Assembly: GCA_037131245.1 (NCBI GenBank)
Contig: JBAXRK010000008.1
Span: forward strand, 20,474 to 84,473
Source: Candidatus Omnitrophota bacterium
Lineage (GTDB): Bacteria; Omnitrophota; Gorgyraeia; Zapsychrales; Fredricksoniimonadaceae
Length of the DNA stretch: 64,000 nucleotides
Reading direction: 5' to 3'
Below the pieces are notes generated by a model, which saw nothing but the letters and a program-made list of their open reading frames with translations, was not told the origin of the DNA and did not search any database. Each line of letters starts with the position of its first letter. Positions within the stretch are counted from its first letter, which is position 1. Both the position numbers and the translations under genes were made by a program. Below, in pieces: positions 31,577 through 62,880 of this stretch.

Positions 31577-31605
31577 AATATAGTAAAGAAATGTAGATTT
31601 AGCAA
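31577..31605 (-). promoter_or_regulatory. candidate sigma70-type promoter for P2
   Basis: Minus-sense TTGCTA, 17-nt spacer, TATATT, in the AT-rich gap between P3 and P2. Confidence 0.3.
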
Positions 31606-31654
31606 CAAAAAGTAATACGTTGATTATTAAAGTATATACGATGTTTTCCAGATT

Positions 31655-37998: not shown

Positions 37999-38042
37999 AA
38001 GATCAAGTTTACACCAGCTCCCGTCGAATGTCGATAATGTTT

Positions 38043-41097: not shown

Positions 41098-43133
41098 GAC
41101 GCCTGGCCATAATGTTTAATAAAGAAATCCTGGGCATTGACCTTGTCTTCGGTCGCTTTGCGGAACGAATACGTGCGTTGCGGTAACAGCAGGCGCGCGC
41201 GCTGATTGTCTTTCCAGGTCTGGTCGAGCACGAAACGCAAATGGTCCTTAAGTTCCTGGCGATGGATCTCGAAAAGAAGTTCAATACGCCGGTCGAGGTT
41301 GCGATGCATCCAGTCGGCAGAGGAAAGGAACACCCGGAACTCGGAATTGTTGTTGAACAGAAAAATACGGCTATGTTCCAGGAACCGCCCCACCACGCTT
41401 TTGACCGTGATATTCTCGCTTAAGCCCGGAACGCCGGGCACCAGCACGCAAATGCCGCGCACGATCAAATGGACCTTCACCCCTTCGCGCGAGGCCTCGT
41501 AAAGCTTGTCGATCATGCGGGTGTCTTCGAGTGAATTGACTTTGGCGAACACAAAGCCATTGCCATAGACCCGCTGGAATTCGATCTCCTTGTCGATGAG
41601 CTCAAAGAAATACTCGCGCAGGTCGTTCGGCGAAGAAATGACCCGCTTCCAGCGCGCCGGCTGGGAATAACCGGAGATCACGTTAAATACGTCGGAAATA
41701 TCCCGCGCGAAATCGTCGTTGGCGGTGAAATACCCGATATCAGTATAGACCCGCGCGGTCTTCTCGTTGTAATTGCCGGTCGACAGGTGCACATAACGCC
41801 GCGTGCGATTCTCCTCGCGCCGCACGATGAGCGCGATCTTGGAGTGGATCTTCATCCCCGCGATGCCGTAAATAACGTAACACCCGGCTTCCTCGAGCTG
41901 GCGCGCCCAGCCGATATTACGCTCCTCATCGAAGCGGGCCTTGATCTCTACGAGCACCGTCACTTGCTTTTTATTTTTGGCCGCCACCTTCAGCGCGGCC
42001 ACGATCTCGCTGTCTTCGCTGGCGCGGTAAAGGGTCATCTTGATCGCCAGCACGTCGGGATCGATCGACGCCGCCTTGATCAGGTCGACTGTTGGCTGGA
42101 ACGACTGATACGGCATATGAAGAATGAAATCCTCTTCCTTGATCCTATCAAAAATATTATCGTAGGCGATCTTGGCCGGTACATACGTTGGAAAGAAAAG
42201 CGCCGCCACCCCCGCCTGCCCCACCAGCTGGAACAGGAACGTCAGGTCCATTTCGCCGTCAATACGAGTAACGTCATCCTTAAGGAAACCAGCCGCCTCA
42301 GTGATCGCGTCCAGGAGCGCTTCCGGGCAAGCTTGCTCGAGGGCCAGCTGCACCACCTTCGCGCGCGGGCGCTTCTTGATCTCTTCCTCGATCGACTCCA
42401 GCAGGTTCGGTGAAAATTCCTCGTCCACCGATAATTCGCTGTCACGGATCAAGCGGAAAAGCGAAGCGCCGGTTATGTCGTACCCGCGAAAAAAGCTCTT
42501 AAGATTGTCGCGGATGATCTCGTCGATCAGGATGAATTCCAGCCCGTTCTTCGATGAAGGGAGCTTCAGCACGCGCGGGATGCTCTGGGGGACCGGGATG
42601 ACTGCCAGGCGGGCTTCACCCTTATACAGCAGGTGGACCGCGAACGCCAAGGTTTTGGAAGCCAGCACCGGGAAGGGATGCCCCTGGTCGATGGCCATGG
42701 GCGTGATGATCGGGTACAGGGTCGCATCGAAGAACCGTTTAACGAATTTCTGCTGATCAGCGGTAAGCTCCCCGGCGTGTCGGATGAAAATGTTCTCCGC
42801 CGCCAAACCGGGCTTAAGCCCCGACTCGTAGACCGTATAAAGTTTTGCCACCAGCTTCAGAATCGTTTCGCGGACCTCACGGTACACATCCTGCGGATAA
42901 TACCCGTAAATATCCTCACGGTTATACTGGGCATCGATCAGCCGCTTGAGGCCGGCCACCCGCACCATGATGAACTCGTCAAGATTATTGGCAAAGATCG
43001 CCAGGAAACGGGCCCGCTCGAGCAGCGGATTCTCAACCTCGGCCGCCTCTTCAAGGACACGCTCATTGAACGCCAACCAACTCAGGTCACGATGGATGAA
43101 CCTATCTTTTTCGTTGAACTTTTCGTCGCTCAT
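41094..43133 (-). CDS. ppk: polyphosphate kinase 1
   Basis: 679 aa. N-terminus RFIHRDLSWLAFNERVLEEA. PLD-like tandem C-terminal domains (HSKIALIVRRE..; LEHSRIFLF). Confidence 0.9.
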   Translation of the reverse strand: MSDEKFNEKDRFIHRDLSWLAFNERVLEEAAEVENPLLERARFLAIFANNLDEFIMVRVAGLKRLIDAQYNREDIYGYYPQDVYREVRETILKLVAKLYTVYESGLKPGLAAENIFIRHAGELTADQQKFVKRFFDATLYPIITPMAIDQGHPFPVLASKTLAFAVHLLYKGEARLAVIPVPQSIPRVLKLPSSKNGLEFILIDEIIRDNLKSFFRGYDITGASLFRLIRDSELSVDEEFSPNLLESIEEEIKKRPRAKVVQLALEQACPEALLDAITEAAGFLKDDVTRIDGEMDLTFLFQLVGQAGVAALFFPTYVPAKIAYDNIFDRIKEEDFILHMPYQSFQPTVDLIKAASIDPDVLAIKMTLYRASEDSEIVAALKVAAKNKKQVTVLVEIKARFDEERNIGWARQLEEAGCYVIYGIAGMKIHSKIALIVRREENRTRRYVHLSTGNYNEKTARVYTDIGYFTANDDFARDISDVFNVISGYSQPARWKRVISSPNDLREYFFELIDKEIEFQRVYGNGFVFAKVNSLEDTRMIDKLYEASREGVKVHLIVRGICVLVPGVPGLSENITVKSVVGRFLEHSRIFLFNNNSEFRVFLSSADWMHRNLDRRIELLFEIHRQELKDHLRFVLDQTWKDNQRARLLLPQRTYSFRKATEDKVNAQDFFIKHYGQAS

Positions 43134-43136
43134 AAA

Positions 43137-44669
43137 TCAGTAACTCTCGTTGATCACCAACCGGATCTGGCTCCCGGTGATGCGTTCAAATAGCTCTTTT
43201 TTCTCAAGAAAATCGTTCTTCTCCAGAAGAAAGTTATCCTTGGAATCAACCTCCAGCGTTATGTCATCGCTGGTACCGTTAATGACCTTAAGCTCCTGCA
43301 CTTTCTGCCGATGCGCGTGGTCCAGCGAATTGGCGATGCGCAGCAGCGCCGACAGCTTCTGCACCGCGATCTGACGGTCATCAGAAAGGCTGTTATAAAC
43401 CAGATGCGATTTCTGCGGGTCGCCGCGGCGATGATAGCGCGCCACGCAGGCGATGGTCTTGATCTCCTCATCGGTCAGGCGGAACAGGTTGAGCGAGCTG
43501 ATGATATATTCCGAATGCTTGTGATGCGCGCGATTGGAAATGAATTTCCCGATATCATGCAGGTAAGCCGCCAGGCTTAAGTACAGCAGGTCGCGCTCCT
43601 CGAGCCCGAGTTGCGGCGCCAGACCGTCAAAAAGAACTTGCGCCAGGTGCGCCACATGCTTGGCATGATCGATGTTGACGTTATACTGTTCGCAGATCGA
43701 ATGCGCTACCGACAGGAGCTGATTGGTCTTGTTGTAGCGTTTCGACAATTCAAGGCCCAGGATCTTGTTGGCCAGCACCGCCTCCGCCAGCGACGTCTCG
43801 AGAATGTACACCTGCGGGATACCGGTCAGCGTAAAAAACATCTTGAGGATGATCATGTAGGGCAAAAGCGCGTCGGTATTCTCCAGGGGCAGGTCGTATT
43901 CGCTAGCGATCTCCTCGTTGGTCTTGGTCGCCAGGAGCTCGATGACCTTGTCCACCTCACCCACCGAGACCTGATAAAAATTGGCAGACACTTTTTTGCT
44001 CGGCAAAATGGCCTTAAGCAACTCCTGGTTCTCGTCGATCAGGAAAATGTCGTCCACATTAAGCCGCGGCAGGCGCGTTTTTAAATATTGGAACTCGTTC
44101 TCAATGTATTCCTCAACGGCCTCGGCCAGCTCTTCCTTGCTGCCATCGATCTTGCCCGTCAACTGCTTGAACCTCAGGCCACCGAGCGCGAGGCCCGTAT
44201 TCATCAGGGTAAAACCTTTCTTAAGGACCGAGATATCCAGGCTACCGGCGCCCATTTCCGCGATCAGGAGGTTCTTGTTATGGACGGGATAAGTACCCTT
44301 GAGCTTATGGGAAATATACGCGTCGATATAATAAACGATATCGCCCACGTTGAGGACATCGATCTCGAGGCCGGTCTTGCGCCGGATCGTATCAACGAAA
44401 ATATTCCGATTATCCGCCTCGCGCACCGCGGTCGTGCCAATAACGAACAACTGGCTGACATTGTATTCAGCCAGGATCTTTTTATATTTCTCGAGTGTGT
44501 TAATGGTGAGATTGATCAGTTCCTGCGTGATGCTGCCCTTAAGGAACGTGGCCCGCCCGATGGGCACGACGTTCTTCAGGGACTCAATGATCATGATGTC
44601 GCCGCTCGACGGCTCACCGATGAGCAGCTTGATGGAATTCGACCCGATATCGATAACGCCGGAAGCCAT
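43137..44669 (-). CDS. ppx: exopolyphosphatase / Ppx-GppA family phosphatase
   Basis: ASKHA N-terminus (VIDIGSNSIKLLIGE) and a C-terminal HD-like domain (LHDIGKFISNRAHHKHSEYII..ARYHRRG). Confidence 0.85.
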   Translation of the reverse strand: MASGVIDIGSNSIKLLIGEPSSGDIMIIESLKNVVPIGRATFLKGSITQELINLTINTLEKYKKILAEYNVSQLFVIGTTAVREADNRNIFVDTIRRKTGLEIDVLNVGDIVYYIDAYISHKLKGTYPVHNKNLLIAEMGAGSLDISVLKKGFTLMNTGLALGGLRFKQLTGKIDGSKEELAEAVEEYIENEFQYLKTRLPRLNVDDIFLIDENQELLKAILPSKKVSANFYQVSVGEVDKVIELLATKTNEEIASEYDLPLENTDALLPYMIILKMFFTLTGIPQVYILETSLAEAVLANKILGLELSKRYNKTNQLLSVAHSICEQYNVNIDHAKHVAHLAQVLFDGLAPQLGLEERDLLYLSLAAYLHDIGKFISNRAHHKHSEYIISSLNLFRLTDEEIKTIACVARYHRRGDPQKSHLVYNSLSDDRQIAVQKLSALLRIANSLDHAHRQKVQELKVINGTSDDITLEVDSKDNFLLEKNDFLEKKELFERITGSQIRLVINESY

Positions 44670-44680
44670 GACCGTCCCCT

Positions 44681-47122
44681 TTAAGCCCGCACCTTGAGCA
44701 TATCACCCAGCACATCAAAATGTTTCACCCAGGCCGCCGCCGCGATATCCGACAAGCCCGTACCCAGCACCTGGGCCCGCTTGACCCGGGCGGTCCCCTG
44801 CGCGATCGCATAGTAACTGTTCTGCGCTTTCCAGAAATCCATATCCAGCTGCAATGTCTGCAGCACCCGGACCAGGTCAATAATGCTTTCCAGCAGCGCC
44901 GCGTCCTCCGGATCCCTCTGAAAACGCAACATGAGTTCATTGACTTTGTTCCCGCCGGCATATTCCAGCTGGTCCTTGTTGCGGCTAAGCGGCCAACGCC
45001 GCACCTCCTGCACCATGCGCCGCAATTTATCCAGCGGCACATCCGCCAGCGCCAGCAAGCGGGTGATATCCCGGTTGAGCACGAACTCCACCACGCCGGA
45101 TAATGTTTTCGGCAGCGGCATATGGTTCTCATTGATCATGCGGATCAGGGAATAATGGTCCTCATAAATGCGCCGGAAAGAGGACTCCACCTCGCGCATC
45201 GTGGATTCAAAAATATGGTCCAGGATAGCCTGCTGTTCCTGTTTGAAAAGATGCCACAATGAATAGTTCTTCGCCCCGAAATAGCGGTTGATCACGTGAA
45301 TGGAGCGCGGAATATCCCCGTCGGAGAAGATCTGGGCCACTTCCTGGCGCATTTTATTGAACTGCGCTTCGTCCCGGTAATAATCCACGCCGGTAATGAA
45401 GTTATGGTCCCCCAGGTGCAGGACCACAAAATGAACATCGAACGCGGTCAGGGTAATGCGGGAGATGATCTCGCAATGGCCGGCCACCAGGCTGAGCTTA
45501 CCGACGACCTGCTTGTCATAGACCTTGCGGATGACCTTAAAGCAGTACATCTCGGCCTGCGGCGGGTAATCCTGGTAAAGCGAGCTCATGGCGTAATGGG
45601 CGCCGACGCGCAGGATATCCACGATCGATGGCTCAACATAGATCTTGTAGATCCGCGCCCCGTTATTGGCTTCCGGCATATTGCTCTTTGCCCGGCCGAG
45701 GATCTCGATAAAGCCAAGCTCCAGGTCCTCATCGGTCACCCGGCGGATCAGCTGAATGACCCGGGCCGCGTACTTGATGATCTGGACCGTCTCAATACCG
45801 GAAATATCGTCGAAGAACCAGCCGCAGCTGGTGAACATCAACAGCGCGTTACGCTGGATCTCCAGGCAGCGAAGGATGCGGTTCTTTTCCTTCGGCTCCA
45901 GGCCGGGGCGCAAATGCTCAGTGAAAAACCGATCAATGTTTGACGGCGAACGGTCCAGGATAACCTCAATGAAAGCGTTACGGACTTTCCAGGGGTCGGC
46001 GGCATACCCTGATAATTCACGCTCAAAAACGCCCGTGGCACGATCGCGCAGCCAGTTAAGGGCCTCCCGCAACGGCGCGCGCCACTGCTGGTGCCAGCCC
46101 GGCTTTCCGCCGGAATTGCAACCGCAATCCGCCTTCCAGCGCTCCACGCCATGCATGCAGCTCCACGAGGTGTTCTCGATGATCTCGGCTTCATATTCCG
46201 GCGGGTTGCGTTCCAGGTATTCACCGTAAACCGTGATACCGGCCAGCTTGTTCTTTTCCACATAATGCAAGGCGTACGCCAAAGCCATATCGCCGAACTT
46301 ATGATGATGCCCGTAAGATTCTCCGTCGGTCGCGATATGCACCATCTGCGGCCGGTTCGTCAGGTCGAGCGCGCCCAGGATGCGGTTGGCCAGCGCCTCC
46401 CCGTTATTAAGCAAGCCTTCAAAAGACACCGCCCGGGAGATCGGGCCATCATAAAAAAAGAGCGCGATCGAGCGGCCTGACGGCAAGCGGCAAAGGTAAG
46501 GCCGGCGCAGGTCAATGGCCTTTGTATCGCCCTCGGACCACTCGCGGTCCTCCGAGATCTTTTTGGCGCGCTTGGCCTGGTGCGGCGCCAGCACCGTGAA
46601 CTTGATGCCCTGCTCGGCCATCAGGTCCAGGCTTTCCAGGTCCACCGCTGTTTCGGCCAGCCACATCCCCTCGGGCATCCGCTTGAAACGGGCCTCGAAA
46701 TCCCTGATGCCCCAAATAATCTGGGTCTTTTTATCGGCGGCGTTCGCCAGCGGCATGATCAGGTGGTTGTACACCTGAGCCATCGCCGACCCGTGCCCGG
46801 AAAAACGCGCGCGGCTCTGGCGATCGGCCTCCAGGACCGAACGATAAGCGTCGGGATCCTTCTTCTCCATCCAGGAAAGCAGGGAAGGCCCCATATTAAA
46901 ACTGATCTTGGAATAGGTATTAACGATCTCGGTGATATAGCCGGCCTGGTCCAGGATACGGGAGGCGCCATTGCGGGCATAGCATTCGGCCGAGATGCGC
47001 TCGTTCCAGTCATGATAAGGAAGGGCGGATTCCTGCAGTTCAACTTCCTCCAGCCACGGGTTTTCACGCGGCGGCTGGTAAAAATGTCCGTGAATGCAGA
47101 TAAATTTATTCATCGCGGTCAA
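44681..47122 (-). CDS. GH57-family alpha-glucan enzyme with a DUF3536-like C-terminal region
   Basis: The N-terminal FICIHGHFYQPPRENPW signature is typical of GH57. 813 aa. The start is TTG at 47122 or ATG at 47113. Confidence 0.75.
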   Translation of the reverse strand: MTAMNKFICIHGHFYQPPRENPWLEEVELQESALPYHDWNERISAECYARNGASRILDQAGYITEIVNTYSKISFNMGPSLLSWMEKKDPDAYRSVLEADRQSRARFSGHGSAMAQVYNHLIMPLANAADKKTQIIWGIRDFEARFKRMPEGMWLAETAVDLESLDLMAEQGIKFTVLAPHQAKRAKKISEDREWSEGDTKAIDLRRPYLCRLPSGRSIALFFYDGPISRAVSFEGLLNNGEALANRILGALDLTNRPQMVHIATDGESYGHHHKFGDMALAYALHYVEKNKLAGITVYGEYLERNPPEYEAEIIENTSWSCMHGVERWKADCGCNSGGKPGWHQQWRAPLREALNWLRDRATGVFERELSGYAADPWKVRNAFIEVILDRSPSNIDRFFTEHLRPGLEPKEKNRILRCLEIQRNALLMFTSCGWFFDDISGIETVQIIKYAARVIQLIRRVTDEDLELGFIEILGRAKSNMPEANNGARIYKIYVEPSIVDILRVGAHYAMSSLYQDYPPQAEMYCFKVIRKVYDKQVVGKLSLVAGHCEIISRITLTAFDVHFVVLHLGDHNFITGVDYYRDEAQFNKMRQEVAQIFSDGDIPRSIHVINRYFGAKNYSLWHLFKQEQQAILDHIFESTMREVESSFRRIYEDHYSLIRMINENHMPLPKTLSGVVEFVLNRDITRLLALADVPLDKLRRMVQEVRRWPLSRNKDQLEYAGGNKVNELMLRFQRDPEDAALLESIIDLVRVLQTLQLDMDFWKAQNSYYAIAQGTARVKRAQVLGTGLSDIAAAAWVKHFDVLGDMLKVRA

Positions 47123-48810
47123 AGGCCCTCAACACTCAAGTCACGCGGGTACTCCACGACATAAGAGAGGGTGACTTCCTTTTTTTCCTTCGGTTGCAAG
47201 GTCAGCGTCCATAAATAAACCCCGCCGCGGTCCTGATATTTCTCTGTTTCGGGCTTAAGGCTCGGCTGCACCGCCACCACTTTGATCTTGTCGTCCTGCG
47301 CGACCGGAACCTGGTCGAACAGCTTAAGCGTCACCGCGCGCGGCTTATAATTCTCCACAGTGATCTTGTAGACATAGGTGATCTTGCGGTTCGGTGAAGG
47401 AATATTCGCGATCAGGGTGTCGTCGCTCTTTTCGGAAACAAGCTCGCGCTTGACCGTCAGCCCTTCGTCTATCCCCAGATAAAGGTCAAAAGCCTCACCC
47501 GGCGCCACGGTTTTTGAGATGTCGGAATTTCCCACATACGTTCCATCAAGGAAAATATTGACCCGCCCGGCCAATAGCTGCGTATCGGGTGCGTTCGTGA
47601 CCCGGGACTTCAGGTAAGCGTAATTTGATAACTTGGGTGTGGTCGTGTATTCAAAAGCCGTTTCCAGCGTCTGCACGGTCAGGGGCACGCGGACCTCGCT
47701 GCCGTCAGACTTGATCGTGACCGGACGGGCCGCTTTGTAAACCAACGACACGCCGGAACTTTCCGCCTGCGCGTACGAAAACTCGGCGTCTTTCTTTTTA
47801 TCAGCCAACGCGGGAGCAGCCATATCCGACATGCTCTCGGCCATCATCGCTTTTTGATTCATCCCGCCGCCCAGGGCACCGAACACCCCGCCAGAGCGCG
47901 CATTACTGTAATGGTGCACAACCAAGGGCCGCAAATACCACGGCGAAAGTTCAGGCATCCGCCCGCCGACCGCCGGTTTGGCTGTGGACAAGGTGAGCGC
48001 AACATCCGTCCAGTCCTCACCCGTCGTCTGACGGACAACCGCGAAAGCGCTCAAGGCCGCTTTGCCTTTCTCAAATTCCACGCGGGCGTCATAGAGAGGA
48101 TACCAACCGACCTGCGGCACGGTATACGACAGTTCGATCGTGAGATCTCCGGCTTTCTCGCACTCAAGGTCGACCGCCAGCAAGCGCTCTTCGCGCCCGC
48201 CCATCGAGGAACGAACCTGAGCCAACTCATTGGCCAATACCTGCCGCTCATTATTCTTGTCGCGTAATTTAATCATCAGCGCCTGGGCGCCGTCTTCATG
48301 GGCCTTAAGGCCGTCATCAAGGAACGCCATGGTAGCTTTAAGTTCCTCCGCCGACGGAACTTTCGTCACCAGGTCTTTGGGCAGCTGATTGCCGTTAAAA
48401 AGGCGCACGGAGTCCAGAAAGGCTTTTTTCTGGTCGAGGACATTGCCCTCGCCTTTCATGGCCGCCAGCGCGTCATCGATAGCCTGGATCTTCGCTTCAA
48501 GTTCGCGAACGCGGTCATCGGAAGCCTCCTTGAGGTATTCCGTTTTAAGGCCCGCGCCCAGGATCTTTACCGAGGCCGACCCCTTGCCGGAAACCGACAG
48601 GGAATTTTCATCGAAAGACGGCACCACGCCGGTAAACCGCACGGTCTGCAGCCCTTCCTTCAGGCTGACCTTGGCCACGCGCGTGACGCGGGCCGATGAC
48701 GGATACACCACCGCCTGGCTGATCGCTGAAACGGTATCAACCTTGTCTGCCGACGCAAAACCCGCGAAAAAGACCACTGCTGCCAGGACTATCAAGCCGC
48801 GTTTTTTCAT
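47119..48810 (-). CDS. secreted DUF4140/DUF4139 (MuiA-like) protein
   Basis: Signal peptide. N-terminal pattern AVVYPSSARVTRVAKVSLKEGLQTVRFTGVVPSFDENSLSVSG, a central coiled coil and a C-terminal beta-rich region. Confidence 0.6.
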   Translation of the reverse strand: MKKRGLIVLAAVVFFAGFASADKVDTVSAISQAVVYPSSARVTRVAKVSLKEGLQTVRFTGVVPSFDENSLSVSGKGSASVKILGAGLKTEYLKEASDDRVRELEAKIQAIDDALAAMKGEGNVLDQKKAFLDSVRLFNGNQLPKDLVTKVPSAEELKATMAFLDDGLKAHEDGAQALMIKLRDKNNERQVLANELAQVRSSMGGREERLLAVDLECEKAGDLTIELSYTVPQVGWYPLYDARVEFEKGKAALSAFAVVRQTTGEDWTDVALTLSTAKPAVGGRMPELSPWYLRPLVVHHYSNARSGGVFGALGGGMNQKAMMAESMSDMAAPALADKKKDAEFSYAQAESSGVSLVYKAARPVTIKSDGSEVRVPLTVQTLETAFEYTTTPKLSNYAYLKSRVTNAPDTQLLAGRVNIFLDGTYVGNSDISKTVAPGEAFDLYLGIDEGLTVKRELVSEKSDDTLIANIPSPNRKITYVYKITVENYKPRAVTLKLFDQVPVAQDDKIKVVAVQPSLKPETEKYQDRGGVYLWTLTLQPKEKKEVTLSYVVEYPRDLSVEGL

Positions 48811-48813
48811 TGT

Positions 48814-50745
48814 CTACCTCATTCTTTTAAAATACACCACGCTGAGCGCCGGCAGGGTCACATTGATCGAATGCTCCCGGCCGTGAGCGCCCCAGCGCTC
48901 CGCCCAGGTCCCGCCATAATTACCCTTATTGCCGCCCCAGTAAATATCCGAATCCGAATTAAGGATCTCTTTCCAATACCCTTCGCGCGGCACCCCCACG
49001 CGATAGTTCTCGCGCATGACCGGAGTAAAGTTACAACACACCAAAATGGTATCGTCCGGGTCATACCCCTTGCGCAGGAAAAACAGCGTGCCGCCTTCCC
49101 AATCCCCGCAATCGATCCATTCGAACCCCGTATAATTAAAATCATCCTGGTACAAGGCCGGCTCGCGGCGATACGTCGCGTTAAGGTCCTGCATCCAGCG
49201 TGACACGCCCTGATGGCGGTCCAGCAAATGCCAGTCCAGGCTCGTCTGATAATTCCACTCGTCCCATTGGCCGATCTCGCCGCCCATAAAATGCAGCTTC
49301 TTCCCCGGCTGGCTGTACATATAACCGAACAACAAGCGCAGGTTGGCGAACTTCTGCCAGTCATCGCCGGGCATTTTATTAAGCAGCGCCCCCTTGCCGT
49401 GCACGACCTCATCGTGCGACAGCGACATCATGAAATTCTCGGTGAACGCGTACAAAAGGCCAAAGGTCAGCTGATTATGATGGTACTTGCGGTAAACGGG
49501 GTCCTTGGAAAAATAGACCAGCGTGTCGTGCATCCAGCCCATGTTCCATTTAAGGCCGAAACCCAGGCCACCGTCGAAGACCGGCTTGGAGACTTTGGTC
49601 CAAGCGGTGGACTCTTCCGCGGTCATCTGAATATCCGGATGCGCCGCGTACACCGCTTCATTCATGCGCTTGATAAAATCGATCGCCTCGAGGTTCTCCC
49701 GCCCGCCGAAACAGTTCGGGATCCACTCGCCTTCCTTGCGCGAATAGTCCAGGTACAGCATTGAGGCCACCCCGTCGACACGTAACCCGTCGGCGTGATA
49801 GTGCTTGAGCCAGAACAAAGCGCTGGAGATAAGGTAATTGCGCACCTCGACCCGCCCGTAATTAAAGATGGAGCTCTTCCAGTCCGGGTGGAACCCTTTG
49901 CGCATGTCCTCATGCTCATAGAGCGATGTGCCGTCAAACTGATACAGCCCGTGGCCGTCATTGGGAAAATGCGACGGGACCCAGTCAATGAAAACACCAA
50001 TGTCGTTCTGGTGCATTTTATCGATCAGGAACATCAGGTCCTGCGGATCGCCGAAGAATGATGCCGGCGCGAAAAAGCCGATGGTCTGATAACCCCACGA
50101 CCCCTGGAACGGATGGGCCAGCACCGGCATGAACTCCACGTGCGTGTAGCCCATCTTCTTCACGTAAGCCACCAACTTGTCGGCCAACTCAACGTAGGTC
50201 AGGGAGCGGTTGCCCTCTTCCGGCACGCGCATCCAGGAGCCCAAATGGACTTCATAGACGGCGATCGGCTGGTTCAAGGCATTGTTCACCTTGCGTTTCT
50301 GCATCCACTCTTTATCTTTCCACTGATAGGCCAGGTCCCACACGATGCTCGCCGATTTCGGCGGCACTTCAGAATGGAACCCCATGGGATCGGATTTCTC
50401 CAGTTCCCAGCCCTGCCGGGTACGGATATAATATTTATAATGCTGCCCGTGGCCGATGTTCGCCACAAAACATTCCCAAACGCCGGACCCGTCGCCGCGG
50501 CATATCATCGGCGTCGCCTGCCGGTTCCAGCCATTGAAATCCCCGATAACCGACACCACTTCCGCGTTCGGCGCCCAGACCGCGAACCACACGCCTTTCT
50601 TCCCGTCGCGCGTCACAAGGTGCGCGCCCAGTTTATCGTAAAGGTTAAAGTGATTCCCTTCGCGGATCAAATGCACGTCAAAATCGGAAAGATAGCAGGT
50701 TTCCGGCTTTTGAGCCGGGCCGGATGTTGTTGCAGCAATAGGCAT
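48814..50745 (-). CDS. glgB: 1,4-alpha-glucan branching enzyme
   Basis: GH13 branching-enzyme motifs (DWVPSHF, GLRVDGVASMLY, EESTAW, SHDEVVHGK). Confidence 0.9.
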   Translation of the reverse strand: MPIAATTSGPAQKPETCYLSDFDVHLIREGNHFNLYDKLGAHLVTRDGKKGVWFAVWAPNAEVVSVIGDFNGWNRQATPMICRGDGSGVWECFVANIGHGQHYKYYIRTRQGWELEKSDPMGFHSEVPPKSASIVWDLAYQWKDKEWMQKRKVNNALNQPIAVYEVHLGSWMRVPEEGNRSLTYVELADKLVAYVKKMGYTHVEFMPVLAHPFQGSWGYQTIGFFAPASFFGDPQDLMFLIDKMHQNDIGVFIDWVPSHFPNDGHGLYQFDGTSLYEHEDMRKGFHPDWKSSIFNYGRVEVRNYLISSALFWLKHYHADGLRVDGVASMLYLDYSRKEGEWIPNCFGGRENLEAIDFIKRMNEAVYAAHPDIQMTAEESTAWTKVSKPVFDGGLGFGLKWNMGWMHDTLVYFSKDPVYRKYHHNQLTFGLLYAFTENFMMSLSHDEVVHGKGALLNKMPGDDWQKFANLRLLFGYMYSQPGKKLHFMGGEIGQWDEWNYQTSLDWHLLDRHQGVSRWMQDLNATYRREPALYQDDFNYTGFEWIDCGDWEGGTLFFLRKGYDPDDTILVCCNFTPVMRENYRVGVPREGYWKEILNSDSDIYWGGNKGNYGGTWAERWGAHGREHSINVTLPALSVVYFKRMR

Positions 50746-50784
50746 GACGGTTCTCCCGTAAGACAGTTATGTCCTCTATATGAA

Positions 50785-50817
50785 CACGAAACGCTGCCGA
50801 ACGGCAGGTCCTTCGTG
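50785..50817 (-). promoter_or_regulatory. stem-loop in the DUF2934-glgB intergenic gap
   Basis: Minus-sense CACGAA-GGAC-CTGCC-GTTC-GGCAG-CGT-TTCGTG, two stacked helices with a GTTC tetraloop and no clear U-tract. Confidence 0.3.
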
Positions 50818-50825
50818 ATAAAAGA

Positions 50826-51071
50826 TTACAGGCCCAACTCTTTTTTAACCAGCTCTTCAGCCTTGTACCAGTCCTTGAGCGAATCACCCGCCGAGCAACC
50901 GCGCTTGATATAAAGCTCATAGGCCTTTTCCCTGGTCAGGTTAAAAAGCTGGTCATCGCTGACCGCTTTCTTCACGACCGCGGCTTTAACCTCGACAGGT
51001 TTGCTCATTTCCCTTACCGCTGAAACAGCGGAAACGGCCTTCGCGGCCGGAGTTGATTTTTTTACTGCCAT
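50826..51071 (-). CDS. DUF2934-like small protein
   Basis: The C-terminal TREKAYELYIKRGCSAGDSLKDWYKAEELV matches the DUF2934 pattern (AY.l...RG...G....DW..AE). Confidence 0.6.
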   Translation of the reverse strand: MAVKKSTPAAKAVSAVSAVREMSKPVEVKAAVVKKAVSDDQLFNLTREKAYELYIKRGCSAGDSLKDWYKAEELVKKELGL

Positions 51072-51098
51072 AAAACCCTCTTTCTTTTTTCGGTTAAC

Positions 51099-53537
51099 TT
51101 ATACTTTCCAGATATCCCGGGCATATTCCCGGATGGTCCGGTCGCTGGAAAACGGGCCGGATTTAGCCACATTGATAATAGACTTTTTCGTCCACTCATC
51201 CTGATCCTGATACAAGGCTGAAACCTCGCCCTGCGCTTTACAGTAAGCCTCAAAATCGGCGCAAAGCATGTAATAATCGCCGTGGTAAATAGTGTCTATT
51301 AACGGCGCGAACAACCCCTTCTGCCCCTTCGAGAACAAATCGCCCTCGAGAGCGCGGAACACGTCACGCAGCGCGGGGGAATGCTTGATGAACTCGCGCG
51401 GGTCATAACCGCCCTTGCGCAACACCTGCACTTCATGGGCCTGAAGGCCGAAGATGAAAATATCTTTCCCCCCCAGGCTCTGGGACATCTCGATATTCGC
51501 CCCGTCATAAGTGCCGATGGTCAGCGCCCCGTTAAGCATGAACTTCATGTTACCGGTCCCCGACGCCTCCATGCCGGCGGTCGAGATCTGCTCGGAAAGG
51601 TCCGCCGCGGGAATGATCTTCTCCGCGAGTGAAACACGGTAATTCTCCAGGAAGACCAGGCGCAATTTACCGCGCACGGCCTTATCCTGTTCAATGACCT
51701 CCGCCACGTTATTGATGAACCGGATGATCAGCTTGGCCAGAAAATATCCCGGAGCGGCCTTGCCGCCGATAATAAAAGTCCGCGGCTGCAGGAAGTCGAA
51801 CGGCGCGGCCTGGACCTTAAGATACTGCGAAATAATATAAAGCGTAAAAAGGAACTGGCGTTTGTACTCATGGATACGCTTGACCTGAACGTCAAAAAGC
51901 GAATTCGGGTCGACGGGAACATCGTTCGTGCGGGCAATGATCTCGGCCAGCGCGTTCTTGTTGGCCTGCTTGATGGCGCGCCACCGGCGGCGGAACTCCT
52001 TGTCTTCCTTATGCGCCTCCAGCCCCCTGAGCAGATCGAGGTCGGTCACCCATTTGTCGCCGATCGTTTCCGTGATCAAGTCGGCCAGCCGGGGATTGGC
52101 TTTCAGCAGCCAGCGGCGCGGCGTAATGCCGTTGGTCTTGTTGTTGAACCGCTCCGGGTACATCTCAAAGAAATCCTTGAACAGCGCGCTCTCCAGCAAC
52201 TGCGAATGCAGGGCCGATACCCCGTTGATCGAGAAACTGCCGACGATCGCCAGATACGCCATCCGGGCTTTCTTGGGCGAGCCCTCCTCAATGATCGACA
52301 TCCTGCGCAGGCGCTCGGAATCGCCGGGGAATTTCCGGGCCACGTCATCGAGGAAACGGCGGTTGATCTCGTAAATGATATCCAGGTGCCGCGGCAGGAC
52401 CAGCCCCAGCAGGTCCACCGTCCAGCATTCGAGGGCTTCCGGCATCAGGGTATGATTCGTGTAAGCAAAAGTCTTTTCGGTCACTTTCCAGGCCTCTTCC
52501 CAGGTGAGGCTTTCCTGGTCCATGAGGACCCGCAACAGCTCGACCACCGCCAGCGTCGGATGGGTATCATTAAGCTGGATACACACCTTCTCATGCAGGA
52601 GGCGGATATCGTTCTTGTCCCCTTTATGCCGGCGGATAATATCGGCGATAGAGGCGGCCGTAAAGAAATATTCCTGCTTGAGCCGCAGCTCCTTGCCCTG
52701 GCTCACATTGTCATTGGGATAAAGGACCTTGGAAATGCTTTCCGACTGGATCTTTTTCTGGACCGCTTTTTCGTAATCGCCGTGATTAAAAAGATCGAAT
52801 TCAAATTCGTCCGTCGCGCGGGCCGACCATAAGCGCAGGGTATTGACCACGTCATTCTTGTAACCGGGGATCGGCGTATCGTAAGGCACCGCCATGACCG
52901 CTTCAGCCTCAACCCACGGGGAGGTGAATTGCGCGCTTTTGTCAACGCGCCCGTAAAGCTGGACCTTTACCGTGTATTCGGGGCGCGGGATCTCCCAGGG
53001 ATTACCGTTGCGCATCCACTCGTCGGGAATTTCGATCTGCTGGCCATCACGGATCTTTTGATTGAAAATACCATAATCATAACGAATGCCGTAGCCGCAG
53101 CCGGCAATACCCAGCGTCGCCATCGAGTCCAGAAAACAGGCCGCCAGCCGCCCCAACCCGCCATTGCCCAAGCCGGCATCCATTTCCTGGGCGCGCACAT
53201 CATCGAGATTTATATCCAGCTCACGCAGGGCCGCTTCAATATCCTTTTCCTTGCCAAGATTGAACATGTAATTGCCCAGCAGGCGGCCGATCAAAAATTC
53301 CATGGAAAGATAATAAACACGGCGGGTATTGTCTTCGTGGTAACGGCTCTGGGTCCTCATCCAGCGCTCCACGATGCGATGGCGGATGGTGAGGGCTAAA
53401 GCATGAAAATTATCCAAAGACGTTGCGGTCCTTTGGTTCTTGGCCAGGTAATGCGCGCGGATATCCTGCAGGGAGGCCTTAATATCCTCTTTACTCATGT
53501 CCATCTTGACATCGTACTTGTCAGCAGGTCGCGGCAT
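51099..53537 (-). CDS. glgP: glycogen/alpha-glucan phosphorylase
   Basis: 812 aa. The PLP-site region EASGTGNMKFMLNGALTIGTYDGANIE is typical of GT35 phosphorylases. Confidence 0.9.
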   Translation of the reverse strand: MPRPADKYDVKMDMSKEDIKASLQDIRAHYLAKNQRTATSLDNFHALALTIRHRIVERWMRTQSRYHEDNTRRVYYLSMEFLIGRLLGNYMFNLGKEKDIEAALRELDINLDDVRAQEMDAGLGNGGLGRLAACFLDSMATLGIAGCGYGIRYDYGIFNQKIRDGQQIEIPDEWMRNGNPWEIPRPEYTVKVQLYGRVDKSAQFTSPWVEAEAVMAVPYDTPIPGYKNDVVNTLRLWSARATDEFEFDLFNHGDYEKAVQKKIQSESISKVLYPNDNVSQGKELRLKQEYFFTAASIADIIRRHKGDKNDIRLLHEKVCIQLNDTHPTLAVVELLRVLMDQESLTWEEAWKVTEKTFAYTNHTLMPEALECWTVDLLGLVLPRHLDIIYEINRRFLDDVARKFPGDSERLRRMSIIEEGSPKKARMAYLAIVGSFSINGVSALHSQLLESALFKDFFEMYPERFNNKTNGITPRRWLLKANPRLADLITETIGDKWVTDLDLLRGLEAHKEDKEFRRRWRAIKQANKNALAEIIARTNDVPVDPNSLFDVQVKRIHEYKRQFLFTLYIISQYLKVQAAPFDFLQPRTFIIGGKAAPGYFLAKLIIRFINNVAEVIEQDKAVRGKLRLVFLENYRVSLAEKIIPAADLSEQISTAGMEASGTGNMKFMLNGALTIGTYDGANIEMSQSLGGKDIFIFGLQAHEVQVLRKGGYDPREFIKHSPALRDVFRALEGDLFSKGQKGLFAPLIDTIYHGDYYMLCADFEAYCKAQGEVSALYQDQDEWTKKSIINVAKSGPFSSDRTIREYARDIWKV

Positions 53538-56745: not shown

Positions 56746-57099
56746 TCACCCTTTACTTTTATCCAGATAAAACTGCTGCCCGACAGATAAACCCAACCGG
56801 TCGATGGTGCCCGCGTTCATTTCGACGGCAATAACGGCTTTCCAGAAAACCGGGCTCAAGCCGAACGGCTTGATGGCGCGCACCAGCCCCACCACCTGCC
56901 AGGACGCATCGACAAAGATCACGTCGATCGGAAATTTCATGAAGAACATGTGGATGGAATTACACTGCGTGATCACCAGGGCCTCGCCATCCTTCAGCCC
57001 TGTACGGCCCAATAATCCTTTCATCCGGGTAAACGTGGTATCGGCCAGAACGGCCTGGTGGGCAACAACTTCCTGGGTGGAGAGGTTCGCGATGATCAC
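56746..57099 (-). CDS. DUF192 (COG1430-like) protein
   Basis: 117 aa with R.KGLLGR......[25 protein letters not shown], typical of DUF192. Confidence 0.6.
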
Positions 57100-57102: not shown

Positions 57103-59280
<2,178 letters not shown>

Positions 59281-59299: not shown

Positions 59300-60997
59300 T
59301 TACTTGCGTTTGGCAACATTTTTAAGGAACTGGTCCAGGCTGTAAACAATAGGAAGGGTTACGGTTATCTCATCTTGCGTGAGCATGGCCGGAAAAGGGC
59401 TGTAGGGAGCCAGGACCTTGGCCGTATTGACCGCGTCCTGATCGAAAACATCATACCCGGAACTTTCTTTAACGAACACGTCCCGCAAGCTGCCATCCTT
59501 GCGAATGACCAGCGCGAGCTTCACCGTTCCCTGCCAGCGATTCTCCTTGGCTTCATAGGGATAAGCAATTGATGAGGAAACCCGCTGCTGCACAGCTTCG
59601 GCATAAGGCTTAAGGCCGGCCGCGATGGTAACCGGAACCCCGGCCGCGTTCTTGGTGATCACCGGCAGATTGGCGTCCCGCCGGGCCGAATCGATCACGA
59701 TGCGCTCATCAGGCGTCACGGACATAAGGGCTTGGCTTCTAACGACCGGCACCACGACGGGCGCTACCGGCGCCTCGGCCACACCAACATCTTTTCTTAC
59801 CTTAATAATAGTCGGCGTAATGGAAATGACCACTTCTGTTTCATCCTCCGGTTGAGCGGAGCTACGGAAAAGCACCCCGATCAAAGGGATTTTGCTGACA
59901 AACGGCACCCTGTTGGTACTGTTGCTGTCATGTTTCTTGATCATGCCAGCCAGGACAATGGTCTGCTTGTCTTCCAGGAAAAGCGAGGTCTGCGCCGTGC
60001 GCGTGGTGAACGCTACGTCGCCGCTGGTAAGGTCCTTGGTGGCATTATCGATATCACTGATCTCAACATTCAACAAAAGGTCAACTTTGCCTTCCTTGAT
60101 CGTGGGGGTCGCGCCCATACTGATCCCGTACGACTTGAACGTCGTGCTCGTGGTCTGTGAGCCGCCGGCACTGGCCGTTGCCGTGGTCGTCTTGATAGGA
60201 ACCTCGCCGCCCACCAGGAACGTGGCTTCCTTGCCGTTACGCACCACCAGCCGAGGTTTGGAAAGCACATGCGCCTTGCCTTCAGACACCAGCGCGTTGA
60301 CTTTCGCGACCAAAGCCGGCGTCCGCGCAAAGCCACCGATCTTAAAAAGATCTTTAGCTTTGTAGGTTGTCGGCGGGGTTTGCTCGGTATATGAAAAAGC
60401 ATTCGTCCAATCAACGCCCAGCGTTTTGGTCAACGTAGACGACAGCTCGGTGATCTGCATATCGAGCTGGATCATATCCTCGATCTCTTCCTTCTTAACA
60501 AGGTTGAGAACGCTACCCTGAAAGCCGTCCGCCACCGAATTAAGGATGGCCAGCTTGTCCTCCGGAATATACCCGGTCAGCATGACCTTGCCCTCCAGGT
60601 CATTAACTTCGATCTTGACGCCGGTCACACCGGAATTTGCCAGGATCTTCTCAATACGCGCCTTGATCAAGCCCAGATCATCACTGAGGACCCTGACCAT
60701 AAAAGACCTCTTGCCGCTATCATCCCACAGGAAGACCACGGTTTGCCCGGCCAGTTGGCCAACCACCGTCACCTGGTCCGGTTTGGCATCCGTAATGTCC
60801 GCGACATTCGGGTCCGTTACCGACACCCGTTGCAACCCTTTGGTCGCAATGGGATAAACGTCCCCCTTAAGGATCGTGATATCCTCAAACCCGCCGGACT
60901 CCGCGTTGACGCGGGGAACAGGCAAAACCATCAAACAGGCCGCCAGGAACAGGCACAGGCATTTCTTCATAGATTTCACCATGGTAGGGACGTTCAT
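59300..60997 (-). CDS. cpaC: CpaC/RcpA-type secretin with a C-terminal TonB_C-like domain
   Basis: Signal peptide. Secretin core (GGEVPIKTT..VPFVSKIPLIGVLFRS..EVVISITPTII). The last 130 aa or so carry YPYEAKENRWQGTVKLALVIRKDGSLRDVFVKESSGYDVFDQDAVNTAKVLAPYSPFP, which is the TonB C-terminal pattern. Confidence 0.7.
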   Translation of the reverse strand: MNVPTMVKSMKKCLCLFLAACLMVLPVPRVNAESGGFEDITILKGDVYPIATKGLQRVSVTDPNVADITDAKPDQVTVVGQLAGQTVVFLWDDSGKRSFMVRVLSDDLGLIKARIEKILANSGVTGVKIEVNDLEGKVMLTGYIPEDKLAILNSVADGFQGSVLNLVKKEEIEDMIQLDMQITELSSTLTKTLGVDWTNAFSYTEQTPPTTYKAKDLFKIGGFARTPALVAKVNALVSEGKAHVLSKPRLVVRNGKEATFLVGGEVPIKTTTATASAGGSQTTSTTFKSYGISMGATPTIKEGKVDLLLNVEISDIDNATKDLTSGDVAFTTRTAQTSLFLEDKQTIVLAGMIKKHDSNSTNRVPFVSKIPLIGVLFRSSAQPEDETEVVISITPTIIKVRKDVGVAEAPVAPVVVPVVRSQALMSVTPDERIVIDSARRDANLPVITKNAAGVPVTIAAGLKPYAEAVQQRVSSSIAYPYEAKENRWQGTVKLALVIRKDGSLRDVFVKESSGYDVFDQDAVNTAKVLAPYSPFPAMLTQDEITVTLPIVYSLDQFLKNVAKRK

Positions 60998-61000: not shown

Positions 61001-61894
61001 CTAAAGTTCCTTTCCGCCGCGGAAGATCTGAATGTAGGGTTTGGTCTCCTGGACATTCTCGGTCTCAACCTTGATCTCGGGTTTCTCGGAAAGGTCTGCC
61101 GCCTTGTTGAGCGCGCTGACATCCGACCCGTTGAGCGGCTTGATATCCGCGCCGCTGTTCTCCAAAACATACTCACCCAGCGTTGACCAGTTAGCCGTCG
61201 GAATCATGTTGCGCCCTTTTTCCGTCGGCGTGCGCAGGGTCAATTCCAACGAGCCGTTCTGTTCCGCAAAAGCCAGCAGGCCCGCTTCCTGGGGCTCGAC
61301 CGCAAAGGTCACCTTGAGGGCCTTCTGCTGTTGCTGGTTCTCGTAGGAGCCCGGCTCATCGATATTCGTATTGATCGCCAGGACCTGAAGGTCCTGAAAG
61401 ATCATGGCCGTCACATTTTCCTTGGGATCAAGCTTCCGTCCCGTCGGCAGGTTCAAATGCGCGATGATGTCCACAAAATCACCCGGATTGATCAGGCCGC
61501 CCACTGCCACCAGCGACTGGATCTCAACCGTGATGGCCCGTTTTCCCGCCGGTGTCCGTAAGGCCAGCGACGCTTTCTTTTTCGGTGCCGCCGCCGCTTC
61601 CGCCCCGCCTTGTGGCTTCTGTGCCGCGGCCGCGGCCGCGCGGGCCGCTTCCTCCGCCGCCCGCTTGGAATTGGCCTGGACCTCCGCGATCCGCTGGTTC
61701 AAGAGCGCGATATCCTGCTGATACTGTTGCTTGGTCTGCTCCTGTGCCTTTTCGAACTGATACGACAATTTCTGCTGCCCTTCATTGATCTGGGCATTGA
61801 TAAAATTGCCGACCAGAACGGACGCAATGACCCCGCAGGCAATAGCCGCGATAATGATCACCAGCTGTCTCTTGTCCATATTTGGAAGGGCCAT
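61001..61894 (-). CDS. cpaB: Flp pilus assembly protein CpaB/RcpC-like, with a Q/A-rich coiled-coil insert
   Basis: N-terminal membrane anchor. RAITVEIQSLVAVGGLINPGDFVDIIA is typical of CpaB. The insert reads QQYQQDIALLNQRIAEVQANSKRAAEEAARAAAAAAQK. Confidence 0.7.
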   Translation of the reverse strand: MALPNMDKRQLVIIIAAIACGVIASVLVGNFINAQINEGQQKLSYQFEKAQEQTKQQYQQDIALLNQRIAEVQANSKRAAEEAARAAAAAAQKPQGGAEAAAAPKKKASLALRTPAGKRAITVEIQSLVAVGGLINPGDFVDIIAHLNLPTGRKLDPKENVTAMIFQDLQVLAINTNIDEPGSYENQQQQKALKVTFAVEPQEAGLLAFAEQNGSLELTLRTPTEKGRNMIPTANWSTLGEYVLENSGADIKPLNGSDVSALNKAADLSEKPEIKVETENVQETKPYIQIFRGGKEL

Positions 61895-61896: not shown

Positions 61897-62880
61897 TTAC
61901 TCTCCGGTTTTAGCGTTCAACAGGTCGGTATTAACACTGACCTTGACCTTCTTGGCAACGTCGGCCATTTTATCCAGCACCGCTTTCTGCTGCTTCTGCG
62001 ACGTCAGTCCCTTAATAAGGTCGGCTTTCACCGTCTCGTAAGCCACCTTGTCGCCGCCGCGAACATCATCAACTTTAACGATATAAAACCCTTCCGGCCC
62101 CTGGAACACGGCCGAAACGCCGCCCTTGGACAGCGCTTCCACCGCCTTGCCCTGCGCTTCAAAAGAAGGCTTGGCCAGGAAACCCAGGTCTCCGCCCGCT
62201 GCCGCCGATTTCCCCTTGGACTTGTCCTTGGCGGCCTGCGCGAAATCCCCGCCCTGCAGGACCGCGACCAGCACATCCTTGGCCTCTGCTTCTGTCGGCA
62301 GGACGATCTCGCTGATCTTCTTCTCGATGGGGTTAACAAAAACATCAGGGTTCTTATCGAAGTAATCTTTCGCTTCGGCTTCCGTAGCGACGATGTCCTT
62401 AGTAAGGTTGGCCACCAGCTGCTGGACCAGGATATTATTCTCAAAATCATTCATCGCCGCGATAACTTCTTTCGATTCATTGATCTTCTGTTCACGCGCT
62501 TCGTGGACCATCAGCTGCTGGCGGATCAGCTCATCAATGAGCATATTGCGCGACTCCGCTTTCTTCTCATCGAAAGTCGGCACGACCTGCTTGATATTCT
62601 TCACCCGTTCGTTGAAATCCACCACGCTCAAGGTCCAATCCCCGACCTTGGCCAGGACATCGGCGGACAGCTTCTCGGCGGCATCGGCTTTGGGCGCTTC
62701 AGCCACCGGCGCAGCGGGAGCCAGCGCGGCCGGGGCAGGGGCTGTCACTGTCACAGGAGTACTGGCCGGTTTGGGCGCGGCGGTTTTCTTGGCTTTCGGT
62801 GAAAGGCTGTCACACCCGACCAGGCAGGTGACGGCGATAAGTGACAGAAAAATGAATGCTTTACTCGATGACCCGACCAT
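61897..62880 (-). CDS. parvulin-type peptidyl-prolyl isomerase lipoprotein (SurA/PrsA-like)
   Basis: Lipobox LVGC, a SurA-N-like helical region, and a parvulin core GDLGFLAKPSFEAQGKAVEALSKGGVSAVFQGPEGFYIVKV. Confidence 0.75.
   Translation of the reverse strand: MVGSSSKAFIFLSLIAVTCLVGCDSLSPKAKKTAAPKPASTPVTVTAPAPAALAPAAPVAEAPKADAAEKLSADVLAKVGDWTLSVVDFNERVKNIKQVVPTFDEKKAESRNMLIDELIRQQLMVHEAREQKINESKEVIAAMNDFENNILVQQLVANLTKDIVATEAEAKDYFDKNPDVFVNPIEKKISEIVLPTEAEAKDVLVAVLQGGDFAQAAKDKSKGKSAAAGGDLGFLAKPSFEAQGKAVEALSKGGVSAVFQGPEGFYIVKVDDVRGGDKVAYETVKADLIKGLTSQKQQKAVLDKMADVAKKVKVSVNTDLLNAKTGE

Follow-up and report, generated by a model that had tools for sequence, protein, structure and literature searches.

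For type IV pili, type II and type III secretion systems (T2SS and T3SS) and filamentous phages, the universal outer-membrane pore is a secretin. The way in which secretins are targeted, anchored and aligned varies by system, and separate accessory proteins are usual for these tasks. In the Tad/Flp pilus of Pseudomonas aeruginosa, the secretin RcpA ends in a short unstructured S-domain, of which residues 412-416 bind the pilotin TadD, and RcpA does not assemble without that contact (PMC10499894). In Caulobacter, the gene of the lipoprotein CpaD lies right after cpaC, and CpaD was modelled around the barrel of the CpaC secretin and proposed to tie it to the wall (PMC13170226). Strand complementation on the secretin N-domain is the mode by which CpaI docks on CpaC (PMC13170226) and by which a hairpin of RcpC docks on RcpA (PMC12307814), and cryo-electron microscopy (cryo-EM) structures show S-domains on the periplasmic outer face of the barrel (PMC12531336). 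Here we analyzed a stretch of 64,000 nucleotides from a Candidatus Omnitrophota bacterium (GCA_037131245.1, contig JBAXRK010000008.1, positions 20,474 to 84,473; hereafter the window), in which a single open reading frame (ORF) on the minus strand (59300..60997) encodes a 565-residue Tad/Flp-type secretin that carries a TonB_C domain at its C-terminus.

By its domain content and operon partners, the protein is classed as a CpaC/RcpA secretin. Like RcpA of P. aeruginosa (RcpA-TadD complex, 8ODN, PMC10499894) and CpaC of C. crescentus (CpaC-CpaD, PMC13170226), it combines a PF13629 N-domain with a PF00263 core, and the partners CpaB/RcpC, CpaE/TadZ and CpaF/TadA are common to all these systems, as is a downstream array of Flp-like pilins in most related loci. 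The difference lies at the C-terminus, where RcpA has the short S-domain that binds TadD and the Omnitrophota secretin has instead a tether of 60 residues and a folded TonB_C domain of 106 residues. In contrast with Tad systems that possess TadD or CpaD/RcpB, no such gene was found in the conserved Omnitrophota neighbourhood, whereas a peptidyl-prolyl isomerase (PPIase) lipoprotein and a DUF192 protein are fixed operon members, unlike in RcpA/CpaC systems. Seymour et al. described a Tad locus of V. archaeovorus, complete and expressed, that lies close to the chromosome start, and discussed the phylogeny of RcpA without any mention of TonB (PMC10066038), and we found neither a description nor an interpretation of a secretin-TonB_C fusion in the literature searched. 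In public databases, the architecture can be seen under names that were assigned automatically. An identical NCBI protein (100%, P0001), which starts at Met10 and so has 556 residues, is titled 'TonB family protein [Candidatus Omnitrophota bacterium]', and the JGI name of the secretin is 'CpaC'; the NCBI name is misleading, as it could wrongly suggest Ton uptake in metabolic reconstructions. The fusion is new to the literature searched; its structure stands on solid ground, and its function is one that we infer.

A TonB/TolA-type fold behind the pore

The earlier note, made from the nucleotide sequence alone, had proposed that the secretin ends in a TonB C-terminal-like domain between 59300 and 59800. 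All the strings that it quoted are present in the 565-residue ORF (EVVISITPTIIKV at residues 388-400, APVAPVVVPVV at 409-419, and YPYEAKENRWQG...APYSPFP at 479-536), and the interval coincides exactly with the tether (59621..59800, minus strand), the C-terminal domain (59303..59620, minus strand) and the stop codon. The size of about 130 residues was an overestimate for the domain itself, which is folded over about 106 residues (460-565), the rest being disordered tether. In the Pfam scan, TonB_C (PF03544) matched residues 477-554 with E = 1.3e-16 and 61.2 bits against a cut-off of 24.6, spanning positions 3-79 of the 79 in the profile, and the NCBIfam model tonB_Cterm (TIGR01352) matched with E = 4e-14; a sub-threshold TonB_2/TolA-like match was also present. 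When a sequence profile of the tail was compared with the Protein Data Bank (PDB), the C-terminal domain of Helicobacter pylori TonB was matched at 1e-12, HasB at 6e-6 and TolA at 7e-3, and the H. pylori match was full-length with the N-terminal helix and the last strand included.

The predicted structure led to the same assignment. The tail was modelled separately (residues 446-565, AlphaFold2) with a predicted local distance difference test score (pLDDT) of 83 and a predicted template modelling score (pTM) of 0.72. Residues 460-565 were modelled with pLDDT above 90 as a helix (residues 460-476), a short helix, β1, β2, a helix, β3 and a C-terminal helix. In a fold search with this model, the first 25 PDB matches were all domains of TonB, HasB or FusB or domain III of TolA, with TMt up to 0.80 and root-mean-square deviations (rmsd) of 1.5-2.2 Å, and the scores collapsed past these 25. 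The matches include the H. pylori TonB domain 6SLY (E = 8.5e-6, TMt 0.73), Neisseria meningitidis TonB in 9DC4 (rmsd 1.5 Å) and Escherichia coli TonB in its complex with BtuB, 2GSK (TMt 0.79). The tail is a genuine TonB/TolA-type C-terminal domain, matched far beyond chance, and the proposal of the earlier note holds by profile as well as by structure prediction.

The tail has the same fold and the same signature as the C-terminal domains of TonB, HasB, FusB and TolA (6SLY/5LW8, 2GSK, 1LR0), namely YP..A...G.V, SSG, D.aA and a final PIxYSL strand, and its N-terminal helix matches that of the longer H. pylori TonB construct. The motif of the terminal β3 strand is IPIvYSL in the family and IPIAYSL in H. 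pylori TonB. In TonB, the β3 strand is the one that pairs with the TonB box. The charge is different, as the Omnitrophota tail is acidic whereas the TonB and HasB domains are basic (median isoelectric point 4.8, against 8.3 for the H. pylori TonB segment and 11.1 for HasB), and the Omnitrophota tail sometimes occurs in tandem.

The mode of attachment also differs. The C-terminal domains of TonB and TolA hang from an inner-membrane helix within the ExbBD or TolQR complexes, whereas the Omnitrophota tail hangs from an outer-membrane pore, so that the polarity is inverted and energy has no route of entry. The N-terminal transmembrane helix of the TonB/TolA type (SHLS-type) is absent, and a signal peptide of the cleavable type followed by secretin domains stands in its place. 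The tether could correspond to the periplasm-spanning proline-rich or helical domain II of TonB, but is much shorter and less regular. Having neither a membrane helix nor a segment for binding ExbB/ExbD, the secretin would be unable to act as a TonB-type energy transducer. As judged from the sequence, the protein is not a TonB/TolA transducer, and only the C-terminal fold is common to both. The use of TonB_C as a connector in a trans-envelope machine, and not in nutrient import, is known from the Myxococcus gliding proteins GltG and GltJ. These keep the polarity of TonB, with an inner-membrane anchor reaching outwards, in contrast with the Omnitrophota TonB_C domain, which is attached to an outer-membrane component.

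The remaining parts of the protein are those of a Tad secretin. A predicted Sec-type signal peptide, read from the sequence, covers residues ~1-33 (60899..60997, minus strand; MKKCLCLFLAACLMVLPVPRVNA|ES), and a helix at residues 3-24 was modelled within this region. It is followed by the N-terminal β-sandwich (residues ~36-104; 60686..60892, minus strand), a VirB9-like T2SS-T3SS_pil_N domain in place of N0/STN, which was identified from PF13629 (residues 52-103, E = 5.9e-10) and from fold matches to VirB9, and was modelled with a pLDDT of about 95; PF03958 and PF07660 were absent from the secretin in the Pfam scan. A second periplasmic α/β domain, which resembles N3/ring-building domains in its modelled secondary structure, spans residues ~105-170 (60488..60685, minus strand), with helices at 108-121 and 146-158 and strands at 127-132, 137-144 and 163-169 (pLDDT above 90), and it gave a weak BON match in relatives. 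The secretin core, with its double β-barrel and gate, spans residues ~175-399 (59801..60475, minus strand) and was assigned by Foldseek and by the Secretin family PF00263 (residues 235-399, full profile, E = 7.4e-43), while the NCBIfam models GspD, PilQ and MshL matched only partially, via the common secretin core. The Ala/Pro/Val-rich tether (residues 400-459) stands at the position of the S-domain and is predicted to be disordered, with pLDDT below 50 at residues 405-443. With the full-length AlphaFold2 model (monomer, 69 homologues in the alignment, mean pLDDT 80.7), Foldseek returned the T2SS, PilQ and RcpA (8ODN) secretins and, separately, VirB9 N-domains and TonB C-terminal domains.

Distribution and conservation of the fusion

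In a metagenome-assembled genome (MAG), a secretin gene and a TonB gene could a priori have been wrongly joined by assembly or annotation, and that possibility is the only point in favor of an artefact. The reading frame is uninterrupted in the window. We scanned one genome per GTDB species, which gave at least 523 loci with relatives, and analyzed the best 80 of them. Almost all alignments reached residue 553-565 of the secretin, and secretin and tail formed one ORF in 78 of these independent genomes. The two exceptions, an apparent loss of the tail (L069) and an apparently split ORF (L070), both have a run of N at that spot and are scaffold gaps. A hidden Markov model (HMM) of the tail matched 78 ORFs in these loci, all of them secretin ORFs (one split), and found no extra TonB_C domain elsewhere in them. 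The best 120 homologues, drawn from NCBI, JGI, ENA and Logan assemblies with identities down to 41%, all have the same three Pfam domains. As the divergence of the tail is also correlated with that of the core (below), the reading as an artefact is refuted, and the junction which the earlier note had left in question is real.

The family is large and has a clear boundary. An HMMER search that exhaustively covered 1.84 billion cluster representatives found more than 150 clusters at 50% identity, each above 320 bits, and all ten clusters scanned, taken from the longest and the weakest, keep the architecture; six of the ten have two TonB_C domains. Tandem domains were also found in four of the best 80 loci, and a fifth locus is cut by a contig end. 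The tandem members are L023, L024, L061, L063 and L071 among the loci and P0121-P0125, P0226 and P0241 among the proteins, and some tandem proteins reach 1045-1091 residues with further unannotated C-terminal sequence. When we searched outwards from a peripheral member (P0263), full-length fused proteins scored at least 419 bits and one fragment 254 bits, whereas unfused CpaC proteins of other phyla scored at most 128 bits, and PF03544 was present in none of about 50 non-clade secretins among the matches listed. By these scores, the fused secretins form a discrete sequence clade with a sharp edge. Most records are titled Omnitrophota or Omnitrophica, and a few Planctomycetales, Elusimicrobia, Phycisphaerae or Hydrothermarchaeota archaeon. 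The MAGs with labels other than Omnitrophota share the same locus and are probably mislabelled or mis-binned. The earlier note had known of no such tail as a standard feature of CpaC/RcpA secretins, which is correct for the model organisms and the nearest CpaC proteins outside Omnitrophota but not within Omnitrophota, where secretin::TonB_C is the standard form. It is a signature protein, specific to this phylum, by which its Tad locus can be recognized.

The tether and the tail evolve differently. Among 69 relatives, the tether varies from 28 to 108 residues and is poorly conserved, being rich in Ala, Pro, Val, Lys, Ser and Glu (A 14%, P 12%, V 11%). The conservation of the tail equals that of the best parts of the pore in the same 69 family members, and the mean pairwise identity is 57.8% for the C-terminal domain and 52.6% for the core. 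Distances in the two parts co-vary (Mantel r = 0.67, p ~0.001), which fits one old fusion, inherited vertically. In 34 diverse sequences, 11 positions of the C-terminal domain are invariant, among them the YP motif, the Gly of GxV, DG, SG and the Tyr of the last strand. Comparison of these sequences marks the fusion as ancient and phylum-wide, under a constraint at least as strong as that on the pore.

Proposed docking of the tail and other possible roles

The earlier note had suggested that the domain could dock to the cell wall or to another envelope protein, and this class of explanation is plausible and the one that we favor. It had also given contacts with outer-membrane receptors or peptidoglycan as established for TonB_C. 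The binding of protein strands is well founded, as TonB and TolA C-terminal domains bind their targets via β-strand addition, in which a short strand of the target joins their sheet (PMC12204202); binding to peptidoglycan is not an established property of TonB_C, and that half of the statement is weaker than it was put. By analogy with these domains, we propose, at a probability of roughly 0.45, that the tail is a passive, tethered docking or anchoring module on the secretin. One TonB_C domain per subunit of the ring (13-14 subunits in RcpA) would hang into the periplasm, outside the barrel, and from its 28-108 residues the tether is estimated to span about 9-35 nm when extended. The tail would then clamp a short strand of another envelope component by β-strand addition, which would fix or align the pore or help to assemble it, and would stand in for separate accessories such as the TadD pilotin or a lipoprotein of the CpaD/RcpB type. 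The partner could be another component of the machine, in the periplasm or the inner membrane, or else a lipoprotein of the outer membrane, for which the PPIase at the head of the operon is a candidate. Docking is favored because strand addition is the established binding mode of the TonB/TolA fold (PMC12204202), and because strand complementation already recurs in the assembly of the Tad machine (RcpC-RcpA, CpaI-CpaC).

In this role, the tail would resemble the AMIN domains of PilQ, CpaD, GspB/OutB (PMC9239104) and the pilotins GspS, AspS and TadD, all of which are accessory elements at the periphery of a secretin. Placed where other systems have the S-domain and CpaD, it could, like those accessories, link the pore with a further layer of the envelope or direct its assembly. 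However, CpaD, the pilotins and GspB are encoded by separate genes and AMIN is fused N-terminally, whereas the Omnitrophota tail is fused in cis at the C-terminus and has an unrelated fold. A whole phylum has a domain of the strand-binding TonB/TolA type hard-wired to its pore at the pilotin site of other secretins, which makes the locus a natural experiment in building a Tad machine without TadD or CpaD, and the TonB_C fold would here be at work with inverted polarity and without a motor. The Omnitrophota Tad locus has been linked to attachment to host or prey (PMC10066038). An answer in terms of anchoring or docking, which is the likely one, would refine rather than overturn current views of secretins.

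Several observations weigh against docking. A search for the partner among the operon products, covering the PPIase tether and the CpaB motifs, yielded none. The only TonB-box-like string seen, TPVTVTA in the PPIase tether of the window, is not conserved in the orthologues of the best 80 loci, whose tethers are variable and of low complexity. CpaB was considered as a strand donor, but the simplest reading of its PxIQIFRGG motif is the canonical hairpin for docking on the N-domain of the secretin (PMC12307814), and the CpaB motifs neither support nor exclude CpaB as partner. For the variable tether and the tandem domains, an anchor of the avidity type on an extended layer seems a better match than a 1:1 contact with a protein, and the periplasmic location of the C-terminus is itself taken by analogy from RcpA and other secretin structures.

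The main rival, a peptidoglycan anchor, is favored by the same variability, as a tether of 28-108 residues and a copy number of one or two are typical of wall-anchoring modules. The tethered domains would bind peptidoglycan and pin the secretin, as an equivalent of PilQ AMIN, CpaD or GspB/OutB. The C-terminus of E. coli TonB is reported to bind murein in one study (Kaserer et al. 2008). The tail also takes the genomic and structural place of CpaD, the proposed tie between CpaC and peptidoglycan (PMC13170226), and other wall-binding domains were not detected in the secretin or its conserved neighbours. On the other hand, binding to the wall is not accepted as a general property of TonB_C, for which strand addition is the documented mode (PMC12204202), the acidity of the domain argues weakly against electrostatic binding to the anionic peptidoglycan, and the secretin has no Pfam match to AMIN, OmpA/OmpA_C, LysM, SPOR or PG_binding; we regard a wall anchor as doubtful. 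The location of the tail, exactly at the pilotin-binding S-domain position, would also suit a substitute for the S-domain that serves assembly only and is recognized by a chaperone or pilotin-like lipoprotein (for example the PPIase) or by Lol or Bam factors, so as to target the secretin and make it oligomerize. RcpA needs the corresponding contact to assemble (PMC10499894), a SurA_N-like/parvulin PPIase lipoprotein lies upstream of cpaB in essentially every locus, and no TadD-like lipoprotein with tetratricopeptide repeats (TPR) was seen in the conserved neighbourhood. Considering that no conserved strand motif was found in the PPIase tether, and that a folded domain of 100 residues which outconserves the pore and is sometimes duplicated is more than a targeting tag seems to need, such a handle for biogenesis is rather unlikely.

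Roles that involve the Ton system or the cell surface fit the data less well. The tail is a bona fide TonB_C domain with a conserved β3 strand and could capture the TonB boxes of TonB-dependent transporters and so cluster uptake receptors at the pilus base, or a stator of the ExbD/TolR type could grasp it and transmit proton-motive force to the secretin; heterodimers of the TonB C-terminal domain with ExbD have been reported in vivo, as cited in PMC9389320. However, no TonB-dependent transporter, ExbB or ExbD occurs among the window ORFs scanned (at least 200 residues) or the conserved neighbour families, and in a survey of Omnitrophota confined to the windows flanking giant-protein loci, canonical import clusters of TonB-dependent receptors (TBDR) or of the sus type were absent (10.64898/2026.06.07.730766). 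The tail moreover has no membrane anchor with which to deliver torque or pull in the usual direction, and a coupling of this kind is improbable. We give similarly little credence to a Ton-like link of inverted polarity. In this reading, the pore-borne TonB_C domain would be grasped from the inner membrane, by a Tad platform component with a TonB box or by a stator of the ExbD/TolR type, and the tether would pass on movement driven by the proton-motive force or by an ATPase, so that the gate opens or the pore is coupled to the extension and retraction of the pilus. If true, it would be a new way to energize or gate a secretin, fixed across a phylum of host-dependent nanobacteria. Lastly, the C-terminus could thread to the outside and display the TonB-like domain as an extracellular adhesin or host-contact module of these nanobacteria. 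Before cryo-EM, an extracellular C-terminus was proposed for the type IV pilus secretins BfpB and PilQ from flow cytometry and labelling (PMC4453517), and Omnitrophota have been inferred to be predators or parasites that use Tad pili (PMC10066038). Against this, S-domains lie on the periplasmic outer face of the barrel in cryo-EM (PMC10499894; PMC12531336), TadD, to which the C-terminus of RcpA binds, is a periplasmic lipoprotein (PMC10499894), the fold of TonB_C is periplasmic, and a folded domain of 100 residues would need to cross the membrane, which makes display at the surface very improbable.

The Tad operon and its surroundings

In the best 80 loci, wherever the contig is long enough, the gene order is mdh, PPIase lipoprotein, CpaB, secretin::TonB_C, CpaE::CpaF and DUF192, and the neighbours of the cluster in the window are mdh and ilvD. 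The first gene of the conserved cluster encodes the parvulin/SurA-like PPIase lipoprotein (61897..62880, minus strand; Rotamase and SurA_N matches in Pfam), which lies directly upstream of cpaB in essentially every locus of L001-L080 and has in most loci a lipobox ending in GC followed by Asp at +2, together with a tether that is variable and of low complexity. The machine may have in this PPIase a chaperone or pilotin of its own. CpaB/RcpC (61001..61894, minus strand; PF16976 at 4.5e-25, TIGR03177 at 1.1e-31) is directly upstream of the secretin and adjoins it in 78 loci. The CpaB of the window lacks the usual N-terminal SAF-like part and consists of a transmembrane helix, a Gln/Ala-rich coiled-coil-like stretch and the RcpC domain, and the only conserved CpaB motifs outside the domain are W..L..YVL..QG and the C-terminal PxIQIFRGG.

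Directly downstream of the secretin, after a gap of 19 nucleotides in the window, a MinD-like CpaE/TadZ is fused to the CpaF/TadA ATPase (57103..59280, minus strand; T2SSE at 8e-60, AAA_31/ParA, TIGR03819 at 7e-100). The two form one polypeptide of 725 residues, of which the MinD/ParA-like part covers residues ~1-290, and essentially all related loci have retained the fusion as one ORF of about 720 residues, whereas CpaE and CpaF are separate genes in model Tad systems. In five of the 80 loci (L013, L015, L035, L043 and L048), the secretin and cpaE/F are separated by about 1.2 kb. The one such gap scanned, that of L013 (11738-12913), holds an ATPase gene with AAA_14 and DUF4143, which may be a mobile or defence-like insertion. 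The last gene of the core cluster encodes the DUF192 protein (56746..57099, minus strand; PF02643 at 1.6e-18). Where the flank suffices, this protein comes after cpaF in nearly all loci (57 were recovered by ORF clustering), and it has no obvious signal peptide.

In most relatives, the cluster lies a few kilobases downstream of dciA-gyrB-gyrA (for example L032:266-5442 and L013:4-5296), in a region of strong synteny. Guessing from these genes, the Tad cluster may be near the replication origin, which agrees with a Tad locus located between 12 and 30 kb on the chromosome of V. archaeovorus (PMC10066038). Beyond DUF192, most relatives have an unannotated protein of about 550 residues with a weak HTH_32 match (52 loci), then 5-7 tandem genes for Flp-like pilins with the processing motif KGQSTxEY (50 loci, 252 ORFs) and, further downstream, large TadE/TadG-like proteins with Cys-rich C-terminal parts. 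The pilins and the TadE/TadG-like proteins indicate that this is a Tad/Flp pilus locus. These pilin-side elements stand about 4-10 kb downstream of the secretin in L005-L080 (for example L032:14177-21650 and L065:14352-21668). In the window and in L001-L004, ilvD follows DUF192 instead, and this lineage has the pilin part elsewhere. Pilins were not found in the window, and TadB/TadC were found neither in the window nor within 10 kb in the relatives. ExbB, ExbD, tolQ/tolR and TonB-dependent transporters were absent among the window ORFs of at least 200 residues and the smaller ones scanned, and the conserved neighbour families contain no genes for ExbB/ExbD, a TPR pilotin, OmpA-like, TadD-like or CpaD/RcpB-like proteins or TonB-dependent transporters.

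The rest of the window holds housekeeping genes for polyphosphate, glycogen and nitrogen metabolism as well as Lnt. A polyphosphate block (36676..53537, minus strand) comprises PPK1, Ppx/GppA, CHAD and metallophosphatases, and beside it lie glycogen genes, namely those of a branching enzyme, GH57/DUF3536 and glycogen phosphorylase, as well as DUF4139/DUF4140. Very long proteins are a known feature of Omnitrophota. Three consecutive large ORFs of 1257, 2088 and 1621 residues occupy 21478..36520 (minus strand), with HEAT repeats, a NUDIX domain and weak matches but otherwise almost no Pfam annotation, and the GC content dips to 0.41 at 22-24 kb, against about 0.55 elsewhere in the window.

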